Virus record (IMG/VR): IMGVR_UViG_2698536657_000009 | From: a virus | Taxonomy: Duplodnaviria > Heunggongvirae > Uroviricota > Caudoviricetes | Strand: one strand, 5' to 3' | Length of the DNA: 19,066 bases | Shown here: positions 6,001-9,000 of the stretch, piece by piece | How positions within the stretch are numbered: the stretch's first letter is position 1 | How the letters are laid out: each line of letters begins with the position of its first letter | Made by a program: the position numbers

Positions 6001-9000
6001 CATTCGTGCGCCAGCGCACCCGGTCCGTTACCTTTTGTCAGGTTGATTGCCACCTCACCCGGCTCATAGTGTGCTGCCGCCTTACCCTTACCACGGGCAC
6101 CAAATGCCAGGCCAAGACGACCGTTCAGGGAAAGCGCTTTTGTCGGTACATTCAGTACTTCCGCAAGGTCATGCAGCGAGTCATAAGCCCGGTTCAAATC
6201 AGCCTGACGACGCGGACCTTCCACATAATTACCAAACTGCACACCACGGAAACCAAACGCATCACTGAACTGCTCCGGTGAAACATTCCCCTTGCGGCGT
6301 TCTGGTCCGGTACGGTCGCGGTTGGTGGCGTTGCGCTGCTCCTCACGCGAAATCTCCCGCATCTCCTTCACATGACGAACAAGCTCATCACGATGTGAAT
6401 CAATGTACTTACGCGCATCACTGGCTGACTTAAAGCCACCTCTCACCCGCATTTTGTTTTTACCGTAAGCGATAAAAATATCGCCACTGCGGGTATTCCG
6501 GTAAACGTCAAAGCGGATTTTGTCATCCGGTGACGGTGCTGTTTTTTCATCACCTTTCGCCTGTGATTTTTCCTCCTGCTCTGCAAACCAGACTTTCGCC
6601 TTTGTCAGTAATTCATCCCTGCTTTCCGAGAAAAAGAGGTTACTACCCTTATTGTCCTTATTGCGCAGTGAATAAAGTTTCTGTGGCGGATCGTAACGCT
6701 TCCCTCCTGCCGCCTGATACACACCCGATACCACCCGATAAGCAGAAGCCCTGTCCATCTGTGAGGGTGGCAGAGTGCGTAACAGTTGCCAGGTGTCCGC
6801 GTAACGGGAGGGCATTCTGCCTTCCATCCATTCTGCGAGGCGTTTCGCGCTGACCGTTCCGTTCAGCATTTCCGATACACTGTGTCGTACTTTTTTTATG
6901 CTCTCCCCCCAGCCTGCCGTATTGTGTTTCGTCTTCGCCGGAATATCGCTACGATACAGCGCTATCATTGCCAGGGTATCAGCATCGGCACCTTCGTTCG
7001 CCAGTTTTGCGTAGTCCGGTTTCGGGAACAGTTTGCTCAGCGGCTGCGTGGCATAATCCCTGTCTTCCAGCGTTTTACCCAGTGTTTCAGCAAGCTGTGC
7101 ATAACGGTGTTTGGCTGCCCCTTTAATTTCCTCGCCAAAGTCTTCAATTTTTTTGCCCCTGACTTCACCTCCGCGCACGGTAGCTTCCCTGTCAGTAGAG
7201 ACAGTTGTTTCAGATTCAGGTGCGATTGTCTCAGGCTGCGGGATGTCACGATTTCCTCCGGCCTGTCGGCGTACTTCTGCCTGCTGTGCAAGCTCAGGCA
7301 GTGAGTCCCGTACAGTGCGGGGAAGTGATTCAGGCTGAGGCATACGAACATTACGCGCAATGTCAGGAGCCGGTAGCCCTTCACGTACCGGTGCTGTCGC
7401 GTTCTGCGCATCCGGTGACGGCAGACCACGACGAACCATTTCACCCTCGAGTGTTTCCCCCTGGCGACCAGCGGCGTTTTCCGGTGCCGGAGCTTGTCCT
7501 TTCTGGAAACTCTGGCCCTTAACCTCACCGGTTGTGGTAAAACGACCACCACGTCCTGCCTGATTCTCATCCGGCGTACGCGCCACCTCTCCCGGTAACG
7601 GATATCCCTGTCCGGGATGAATATCGCCGGGAGCGGGCAGGCGTGGACGCTCAGTTAACTCCTGTGCTGTCGGACCGGCATCACCTTCAGCCATCTGTGA
7701 ACGTACAAGCTCCTCTGCCGTCGGCACGTTGCCACGGGCAAGGCGGGCCTGTACCTCCGTATCATCCCCCGTGAAACCACGGAATCGTGGGTCACGCATG
7801 AACGCGGGCTGCTCCATCGGGTCAGCATCAGCAATACGCTCTCCGTCAGCCAGGGTGTTAATGGTTTCCGTTGCCACATCTTCAGAGAACGCAGGATTAT
7901 CCATTTCAACGGCATACTGATTCTCGCCTTTCTTCACTACGGACGGTTTCAGGCCGGTGGCGGCGGCATTACGGAAAACATCACTCCCCATGGCGCTTTT
8001 CTCATCCGTGAAATAACGGTTGTCCGGGCGCACCTTTTCAATGCGTTCCGCTGGTCTGGACGCACCATTCCCGTTAATTTCAATGCGGACTTCATTCGGG
8101 TCCCGGAACCGCACCGTCGGGTAAATGCTCCCGTTACCATCCTCCGCATTTTCAGGCTGTGACTGTGCTTCCGGCGTCACTTCCTGTTGTGGGCGAATGA
8201 CTTCTCGTATTGCCTGAAACTGTTGTTCTTCAGTCTCGGTGCGCCCCTCTTTCTGGCTGAGTCTGCGGTATTCCTCAAGCAGTTCAGAACGCGGCTTCGC
8301 CTTCAGCTCATTCATCACAGCCTGTCGCTTCGCCTGTTCGTCCAGTTCATTCAACAACTGGCTGGCAGCTTCCCGGCGATGAGCTGCGGATGCGTCACCC
8401 TCTGTTGCCATATCCGCATCAGCATACTGCTCCAGAAGCTGCTCGCGATTCATGCCCTGCATGGATTCACGCTGCTGCGCCACCGGATCAACAGATTCTG
8501 GTTGCGGGGCTGCGTCGTCCTGCTGCACGGTTTCAGCATCACGCATGGCGGTTTCTTCTGCGGCCTGACGTCTGCCACGATATCCGGCAACCGCACCGGA
8601 TGGAGCCCCCATCGCAGCACCAAAGGCTGCACCTTCGATCGTTGCGTCAGCCACGCCCTCCCACGGTGACACATCCATTCCGGCGGTCTCACGCAATGCC
8701 GTGTTTTCCTGATAGCGTGAATAGCCGCCCTGCGCCGCATTAATCGCCCCCTGTTCCGTGGCATTTCTGACAATGCCGCTTTTAACGGTCTTCGCTGTGC
8801 CTCGTGTCACCAGATTAAACAGTTGTGCGTCACCCAGTTTTGCCGCCATGGCATTCACAGCCAGCAATTCAGGATCGGTTGCCAGCTGCGCGCGCACCTC
8901 ATCGGCAACACGCTCTTTTGCCAGATCCATTTTCTGGCGATCAGTAAGCTGTGCGTGCTGCGGGTCGGCGTCAATGGACAAAAACGTCTGCTGAAATTTC

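Follow-up and report, generated by a model that had tools for sequence, protein, structure and literature searches.

Residues 430-900 of a 2,795-residue protein encoded by a Shiga toxin (Stx) podophage appear to form a modular beads-on-a-string connector of a virion-packaged polyvalent (ejection) protein, a reading to which we assign a probability of about 0.6. The protein is the product of a giant open reading frame (ORF; 1467..9854, minus strand) in a 19,066-nucleotide (nt) stretch of viral DNA, IMG/VR virus record IMGVR_UViG_2698536657_000009, the whole of which is referred to here as the window; it is a phage polyvalent protein and the orthologue of phi24B gp47. The segment itself, nt 7155-8567 on the minus strand, is acidic, rich in Gln, Glu, Ala and Pro and poor in hydrophobic residues. 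We propose that it joins the N-terminal domain (residues ~216-430) to the first payload domain (folded from residue ~916, with LPD5 at 1050), and that it consists of ~220 residues of acidic Pro/Gly/Gln-rich tether lacking a hydrophobic core, alternating with small units: a ~100-residue helical bundle (module B), a ~50-residue clade-specific alpha/beta insert (module C) and a ~80-150-residue motif block (block D, with a weaker block E). The evidence is the composition of the segment, its predicted order and disorder, the gain and loss of its modules, purifying selection and conservation at the level of the protein, each described below; packaging into virions is taken from the literature on the orthologue.

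The window corresponds to the late region of a 933W/phi24B-type Stx podophage. Its nt 7150-8570 gave 186 matches among phage records at 80-99.9% nucleotide identity, all of them to Stx-converting or related Escherichia/Shigella podophages of the 933W, VT2-Sakai and phi24B type (genera Traversvirus and Oslovirus), with phiSTEC1589-Stx1c as the top match, and most of the window is present as prophage in ~330 complete E. coli genomes. Pfam places LPD5 at residues 1050-1199 of the giant protein, LPD1 at 1360-1439, MuF_C at 1748-1846 and LPD38 at 2478-2683, all far above the gathering score, and PHROG 616 spans the protein from end to end. On the basis of this domain content and the PHROG match, the giant protein belongs to the phage-type polyvalent proteins as defined by Iyer et al., 2017 (PMC5512222): it carries at least two distinct LPD/effector domains and is encoded among virion genes. 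No Pfam model was found over residues 1-1049, and Pfam scans of four pieces of residues 430-1050, together with the small module of a homologue, returned nothing credible at E<=10.

The location of the segment inside the giant protein and its acidic, Gln/Glu/Ala/Pro-rich bias, both reported in a first-pass annotation of the window, were confirmed. Together these four residues make up 40.3% of the segment and 25.2% of the remainder of the protein (Fisher p 9e-11), and a 20-residue chi-square comparison of the two gave p 1.7e-11. Ala and Glu each account for 12.1% of the segment, Arg for 9.8%, Pro for 8.3% (against 4.1% in the remainder) and Gln for 7.9%, whereas Ile, Leu, Val, Phe, Trp, Met and Tyr together fall to 18.9% from 28.7% in the remainder (p 9e-6) and the aromatics to 3.4% from 7.4%. 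With Asp and Glu at 18.3% and Lys and Arg at 12.1%, the net charge is -29. The other non-overlapping 471-residue windows of the giant protein contain 21-28% Gln/Glu/Ala/Pro and 26-32% hydrophobic residues, with net charges of -3 to +18, and residues 430-900 are the most biased window of that size. Low hydrophobicity, high net charge and richness in Pro, Gly, Gln and Glu, the composition expected of a linker, are thus all found here. Lys itself is low in the segment (2.3% versus 6.8%, p 7e-5) while Arg stands at 9.8%, and the G+C peaks of the whole window (0.54-0.57) also lie there.

Low complexity and short internal repeats, which had been ascribed to the segment as well, did not hold. Default SEG masks seven short intervals in the giant protein and not one residue of 430-900, and windows with an entropy of <=2.2 bits take in no residue of the segment compared with 79 in the rest of the protein. 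Masking that reaches into the segment (residues ~362-604 and ~644-973) required the long-window 'non-globular' setting, and the gap in this masking, at residues ~605-643, coincides with the small predicted domain of module C. Seven 4-mers recur in the segment where 3.3 were expected, which is near chance (reached in 35 of 500 shuffles); self-BLAST detected no internal alignment and Tandem Repeats Finder (TRF) no DNA tandem repeat within it, and GLPSPD/GLPAPD, which had been offered as an example, is one local pair only. With negative or marginal outcomes from self-BLAST, k-mer shuffles and TRF alike, internal repeats were discarded as a feature of the segment.

Structure prediction divides the segment into folded and apparently unfolded pieces. 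AlphaFold2 was run on residues 1-1200 with an alignment of 23 sequences (run 1) and on residues 415-915 with 21 sequences including distant homologues (run 2). In run 1, the predicted local distance difference test score (pLDDT) was 75-87 over a helical region at residues 455-555, 56-61 at 615-650 and 66-87 at 916-1100; it fell below 50 at residues 397-454, 555-614, 652-714 and 724-915, the last of these scoring ~25 without secondary structure. Run 2 predicted five helices at residues 455-554 (pLDDT 87-93) and a beta-alpha-alpha-beta-beta arrangement at 604-654 (68-85). Residues 676-749 scored 56-74, with short helices that cover the first half of block D, those at residues 684-735 being of moderate confidence; the Pro/Gly-rich C-terminal half of that block has no predicted secondary structure. 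Residues 750-845 scored 36-42, again without secondary structure, residues 846-865 scored 58-65 as one helix, and the remaining residues were below 45. The stretches of run 2 with pLDDT below 50 (residues 430-454, 555-603, 655-675, 750-845 and 866-900) have almost no secondary structure, and the two runs agree on low pLDDT up to residue 915.

Estimated from 10-residue block means of run 2, ~32% of residues 430-900 score at least 70, ~21% score 50-70 and ~47% fall below 50, so that the segment does not lack confident structure along its whole length. The extended disordered linker of the first-pass annotation is therefore recognisable in about half of the residues, while about a third is confidently folded and the whole is not one uniform linker; likewise the supposed lack of a hydrophobic core applies to the tethers and is contradicted by the predicted folds at residues 455-554 and 604-654. 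The check that had been named for this claim, a confident fold by pLDDT, thus turned up two such regions but no fold across the whole segment.

To delimit the pieces, all of which are encoded on the minus strand, the window protein was aligned with P0120, a Salmonella-type relative whose N-terminal domain is 60% identical, as well as with prophage proteins of 2,400-2,900 residues from Pectobacterium, Brenneria, Serratia and Yersinia. Piece A (residues 430-454, nt 8493..8567) is a variable acidic, Gln/Pro-containing tether with pLDDT ~42, which shows substitutions in close relatives and an 11-residue insertion in P0120. Module B (residues 455-554, nt 8193..8492) is the helical bundle; it holds two related motifs, xRExLLExYADAD and KPRSELLEEYRxLxxK, and is present in some distant homologues and missing from others. 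The idea that these motifs are a pair of HeH/SAP-like DNA-binding elements found no support in sequence or fold and is left as speculation. A low-confidence stretch follows (residues 555-603, nt 8046..8192; pLDDT 31-41), with two weakly predicted hairpin strands, and leads to the core of module C (residues 604-654, nt 7893..8045), the small beta-alpha-alpha-beta-beta domain. This core sits within a ~110-residue insert (residues ~566-677, nt 7824-8159) that only the E. coli Stx-phage clade has; P0120, P0122 and P0123, which are homologues of the Salmonella type, lack it. The low-confidence tail of the insert occupies residues 655-677 (nt 7824..7892). A SPOR-like homology of module C to the 'GGYAV' module of P0132 and P0136 was also considered and rejected, as BLASTP gave no alignment even at E 100, and a single SPOR match in BFVD (E 3.3) is noise.

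Block D (residues 678-760, nt 7575..7823) is a conserved motif block with 25 invariant columns and the pattern PAFMRDPRFRGF...VQxxL...PTAEELxxxQxxxGxxGxxxxE...RPRLPAPG...PLPGEV. Block E (residues 761-830, nt 7365..7574) is semi-conserved and Gly/Pro-rich, scores 36-42 with no predicted secondary structure, and carries the motifs AGxGxxF...V[RK]GQxF...GRxxxTxxGE as well as the GLPSPD/GLPAPD pair. Blocks D and E contain 24-27% Pro+Gly and 3-5% aromatics. Piece F (residues 831-896, nt 7167..7364) is a second variable tether, with a weak predicted helix at residues 846-865.

Length variation among homologues falls into two classes. Across 34 distinct E. coli variants the segment is nearly indel-free except at residues 866-896 (nt 7167-7259), a hot spot of alternative alleles, differences in (VP)n copy number and a 14-residue insertion; larger inserted blocks were confined to the comparison with P0120, which is more distant. 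Between genera, whole modules are gained or lost, and length changes accordingly. The length variation that had been suggested as a check on the linker is thus present at this one site and at the level of modules, and is nearly lacking from the rest of the segment in close relatives. At the hot spot, the Val-Pro run ranges from one to five copies across the E. coli prophage alleles P0004, P0013, P0014, P0031 and P0055; the 14-residue insertion allele adjoins this run, and the window's own allele differs in sequence there.

A phmmer search of 1.84 billion representative proteins with the segment gave 16 matches only, all of them Enterobacterales relatives. In the distant full-length homologues, residues ~674-836 matched best, and a profile of block D used as query returned short fragments only. 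In these homologues block D begins ~60-250 residues after the N-terminal domain ends, another 342-624 residues separate it from LPD5, and LPD38 forms the C-terminal end in all. Block D is kept even in P0130, which is without LPD5, LPD1 and MuF_C, and in P0132, which is without LPD5 and LPD1. Since the middle domains differ while block D and LPD38 persist, the alignments point to a constant frame, in which the N-terminal domain and block D are followed by a swappable middle and then by LPD38.

Selection on the segment was measured as the ratio of nonsynonymous to synonymous divergence (dN/dS) by the Nei-Gojobori method, comparing the window with four relatives (L002-L005) that share 84-94% nucleotide identity over this part of the gene. 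The ratio was 0.11-0.24 for the whole segment, lower than in the N-terminal domain (0.32-0.47); in LPD5 it was 0.10-0.22. Purifying selection acts on the segment, which displays neither the weak constraint nor the free length variation expected of a linker. In block D, 0-1 amino-acid changes were found per 83 codons; dS was 0.36-0.39 in three of the four comparisons, giving a dN/dS of 0.00-0.01, and L003, the fourth relative, hardly differs from the window there. Because block D is nearly unchanged while dS is not suppressed, the constraint is one on the protein sequence rather than the DNA; a DNA-level cause of its conservation was ruled out by the normal divergence of synonymous sites (dS ~0.36).

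Synonymous divergence from L002-L005 forms a mosaic along nt 6255-9854 of the gene. L003, for example, is nearly identical to the window over residues 430-760, has a dS of 0.26 in the N-terminal domain and of >2 in residues 831-896, and is saturated in residues 897-1049. Such sharp differences between neighbouring pieces indicate recombination breakpoints inside the giant gene, at module borders.

The simplest alternative to a modular connector is that residues 430-900 are one extended disordered linker, a passive spacer of which only length and composition matter. The strong compositional bias of the segment would suit such a spacer, as would the pLDDT below 50 of about half its residues, the lack of a Pfam match for any piece and the mere 16 matches in 1.84 billion proteins. 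However, the confident helical bundle at residues 455-554 and the small domain at 604-654, the dN/dS of 0.11-0.24 that drops to ~0 in block D at unsuppressed dS, the 25 block D positions that are invariant across genera and the restriction of length changes in close relatives to residues 866-896 all run counter to it. Given the dN/dS values and the invariance of block D, the segment is not a freely drifting spacer; selection, the invariant block and the predicted folds largely refute this alternative, which we consider very improbable.

Block D is the part of the connector with the clearest signature. Its 25 invariant columns come from six sequences whose identity to the window is 44-75% within the block. 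It occurs in the giant prophage proteins of Pectobacterium, Brenneria, Serratia and Yersinia at residues ~490-600, directly after the N-terminal domain (its start is at residue 488-596 in L006-L012 and at 678 in the window protein), and is kept at a short, variable distance after that domain in every full-length homologue. Since it stays beside the N-terminal domain in every homologue despite differing middle domains, block D most plausibly serves a delivery cassette as a specific element for binding or processing and is not a spacer; it probably either folds only on a binding partner or is recognised by a protease. More specifically, and only tentatively, block D, with the weaker block E to residue ~830, may be a dedicated delivery-cassette signal of the LPD38-type giant proteins of Enterobacterales podophages and prophages, folding on binding and docking the protein either to part of the virion, for packaging, or, once ejected, to a component of the envelope or host. 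A docking signal of this kind would explain why block D is invariant beside the N-terminal domain while payload domains are swapped.

Were block D and block E instead a processing region, motifs such as RPRLPAPG...PLPGEV would be cut by the protein's own HExxH modules or by a host protease, freeing the payload from the N-terminal delivery part after ejection. The same polypeptide does carry two zincin-type HExxH motifs, HEWFH at residues 1283-1287 (nt ~5994-6008) and HEIIH at residues 1550-1554 (nt ~5193-5207); no peptidase-family profile in Pfam matched the giant protein, these two motifs included. Iyer et al. proposed autoproteolysis of polyvalent proteins into functional units (PMC5512222), and the block D and E motifs are exposed, Pro-rich and located at a domain boundary. 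However, a cleavage site needs few residues whereas block D is conserved over ~80, fragments of gp47 in virions or infected cells are not reported in the phi24B preprint, and several conjugative polyvalent proteins, like the N4 virion RNA polymerase, are transferred without being processed (PMC5512222). We therefore regard processing as an improbable explanation of this region. In the case of MuF_C, the literature differs on function: the domain is a metallopeptidase according to the phi24B preprint, but PBECR, a predicted RNase domain, according to Iyer et al. (PMC5512222).

A further alternative is that blocks D and E and piece F become ordered in an oligomer, such as a trans-envelope tube or a core stack like that of T7 gp14/15/16, and that this order was missed by monomer predictions from shallow alignments. 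The very strong conservation of blocks D and E and the moderate-confidence helices at residues 684-735 and 846-865 would be in keeping with this, and the ejection proteins of T7 and N4 refold between their pre- and post-ejection states, with ends that are disordered when expressed alone (PMC8954989, PMC13434306). The composition of blocks D and E, with 24-27% Pro+Gly and 3-5% aromatics, speaks against it, as do the absence of predicted secondary structure at residues 750-845 in either AlphaFold2 run, the absence of an amphipathic or repeat pattern from the segment and the lack of ordered density for phi24B gp47 in the virion map (bioRxiv 10.64898/2026.04.10.717836). On balance, structure that depends on assembly seems unlikely.

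Several points weigh against the connector that we favour. The AlphaFold2 alignments were shallow (21-23 sequences, many of them near-identical), so that low pLDDT in the segment may reflect a lack of information and not true disorder. The N-terminal 215 residues (nt 9210-9854), which are Gly-rich, conserved in distant homologues and almost devoid of predicted secondary structure, likewise score ~25 in run 1. For these two reasons, low pLDDT suggests disorder without proving it. FoldIndex did not discriminate, as it also called the Pfam domain LPD5 'unfolded', and was discarded as evidence of disorder. The folded modules have no informative structural neighbours in PDB or BFVD: with the 501-residue model, the best Foldseek match in PDB (E 0.68) was to generic KH or ring-building alpha/beta folds, the sole return from BFVD was the phi191 orthologue, and a profile of the segment alignment run against PDB sequences gave a chance match only (E 0.48). 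The conservation of blocks D and E could equally be compatible with a structure formed only in an oligomer. Finally, presence in virions is reported for the orthologue gp47, and in a preprint only.

For the modular connector, we propose the following course of events. The tethers would keep this large protein loosely folded inside the capsid and would then allow its small units to pass one by one through the ~3-4 nm portal-tail channel. Once outside, they would span the cell envelope, and block D would act with a partner or in processing, as an element of the delivery cassette. The first-pass annotation likewise took such a linker to be expected of a protein threaded through a portal/tail channel; the literature is consistent with this, given the presence of gp47 in virions, its proposed ejection and the beads-on-a-string precedent of N4, and the threading itself is our inference. 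The accompanying remark that a linker of this type would be unexpected for an enzyme draws a false contrast, since the same polypeptide has predicted enzymatic modules (LPD5, MuF_C and the two HExxH motifs). Taken as a whole, the earlier observation and its interpretation are partly supported.

Other features of the gene and its surroundings deserve mention. Six out-of-frame or antisense ORFs lie in the giant gene, at 7205-7522(+), 8187-8669(+), 8390-8743(+), 7037-7570(-), 7655-7915(-) and 8450-8773(-), and each matches its own PHROG family at E<1e-57. We judged them to be artefacts and not genes, as 7037-7570(-) encodes Arg-rich nonsense and dS in the main frame is not suppressed; the corresponding PHROGs look like products of over-annotated or frameshifted Stx-phage records. 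One family, phrog_20690 (939 positions), consists of residues 1-747 of the giant protein fused to an out-of-frame ORF. In or near LPD38, SEG masks hydrophobic stretches rich in Ala, Gly, Val and Leu (nt ~2460-2505 and ~2208-2246, residues ~2451-2465 and 2537-2549), which could be candidate membrane-inserting helices and as such would suit an ejection-protein role. Among the large genes of the late operon, the giant gene comes last; it lies downstream of the genes for tail fibre and internal virion proteins and of Lom/Bor-type morons. The operon holds a Lom-like gene (13517-14251) and a membrane-associated 'moron' (14342-14959), and the G+C content of this stretch drops to 0.41-0.43 compared with ~0.52 around it.

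Phages of the 933W/phi24B type spread Shiga-toxin genes, and how an internal protein of ~2,800 residues is packed and delivered is a stated unknown (bioRxiv 10.64898/2026.04.10.717836). The module map offers experimental handles on this question, namely cut points for expression, ~80 residues to mutate for effects on packaging or ejection, and an insertion-tolerant part for tags. The gene family, its association with virions and the proposal that it encodes an ejection protein have already been published, and a long flexible connector was to be expected; the internal layout of this connector and block D, with its strong conservation, seem not to have been described before.

The closest known counterparts are phi24B gp47 and the 933W/Sp5 orthologues (for example, 933W L0134), which are encoded by orthologous genes and share the same LPD5/LPD1/MuF_C/LPD38 content. 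The phi24B protein (2,811 residues) was abundant in purified virions by proteomics (bioRxiv 10.64898/2026.04.10.717836) but absent from the cryo-electron microscopy map (bioRxiv 10.64898/2026.04.10.717836). The authors proposed for it packaging in the capsid and a role as an ejection protein, and considered its organisation there an open question (bioRxiv 10.64898/2026.04.10.717836). In contrast to our analysis, their preprint does not describe the region of residues 430-900, its modules or block D. As in the phage-type polyvalent proteins catalogued by Iyer et al. (PMC5512222), several LPD/MuF_C modules and HExxH motifs are combined here in one polypeptide encoded among virion genes; the words 'linker', 'disordered' and 'low-complexity' are absent from the text of that domain catalogue (PMC5512222).

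The Bcep22-like podophages and 933W have related portal, capsid and head-closure proteins, and in the Bcep22-like phage JC1 the giant protein was found in virions by mass spectrometry (PMC9144972). Like the gene studied here, those for the 'DarB-like' giants of Bcep22 and JC1 (~4,500 residues) stand at the end of the morphogenesis module, and the LPD38 region is shared through phrog_10089 ('DarB-like antirestriction'). Unlike them, the window protein matches this family only at residues 2353-2683, its C-terminal LPD38 region, and a Pfam scan of the whole protein found neither a methyltransferase nor a helicase domain; for both reasons it does not qualify as a P1 DarB-like antirestriction protein. 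As far as tested, no counterpart of the segment exists in the Bcep22/JC1 giants, the phmmer search having returned Enterobacterales relatives only.

Among other short-tailed phages, T7 gp14/15/16 and P22 gp7/16/20 are likewise internal proteins, and the T7 and P22 ejection proteins pass the portal in a partly unfolded state, after which they refold to form a conduit across the envelope (PMC8954989). They differ in being separate, mostly helical proteins that form ordered core stacks and have no long acidic Pro/Gly-rich tether, and no homology between them and the giant protein was found. The better analogy is with the N4 virion RNA polymerase (gp50, 3,500 residues), which Iyer et al. also classed as a polyvalent protein (PMC5512222) and to which the giant protein has no detectable sequence homology. 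Its ejection has been explained by a 'beads on a string' model; a linker of ~100 residues separates its N-terminal domain from the polymerase domain (PMC13434306), and this linker is thought to permit passage through a ~35 A channel and to keep the protein tethered to the membrane (PMC13434306). Both are giant podophage proteins in which folded units are joined by extended linkers, with ejection only predicted in our case. Unlike that of N4, the connector described here is ~4-5 times longer and includes folded inserts and a strongly conserved motif block. By this analogy, it would be comparable in kind to the N4 linker, and the phenomenon a biologically ordinary one, namely a beads-on-a-string connector.

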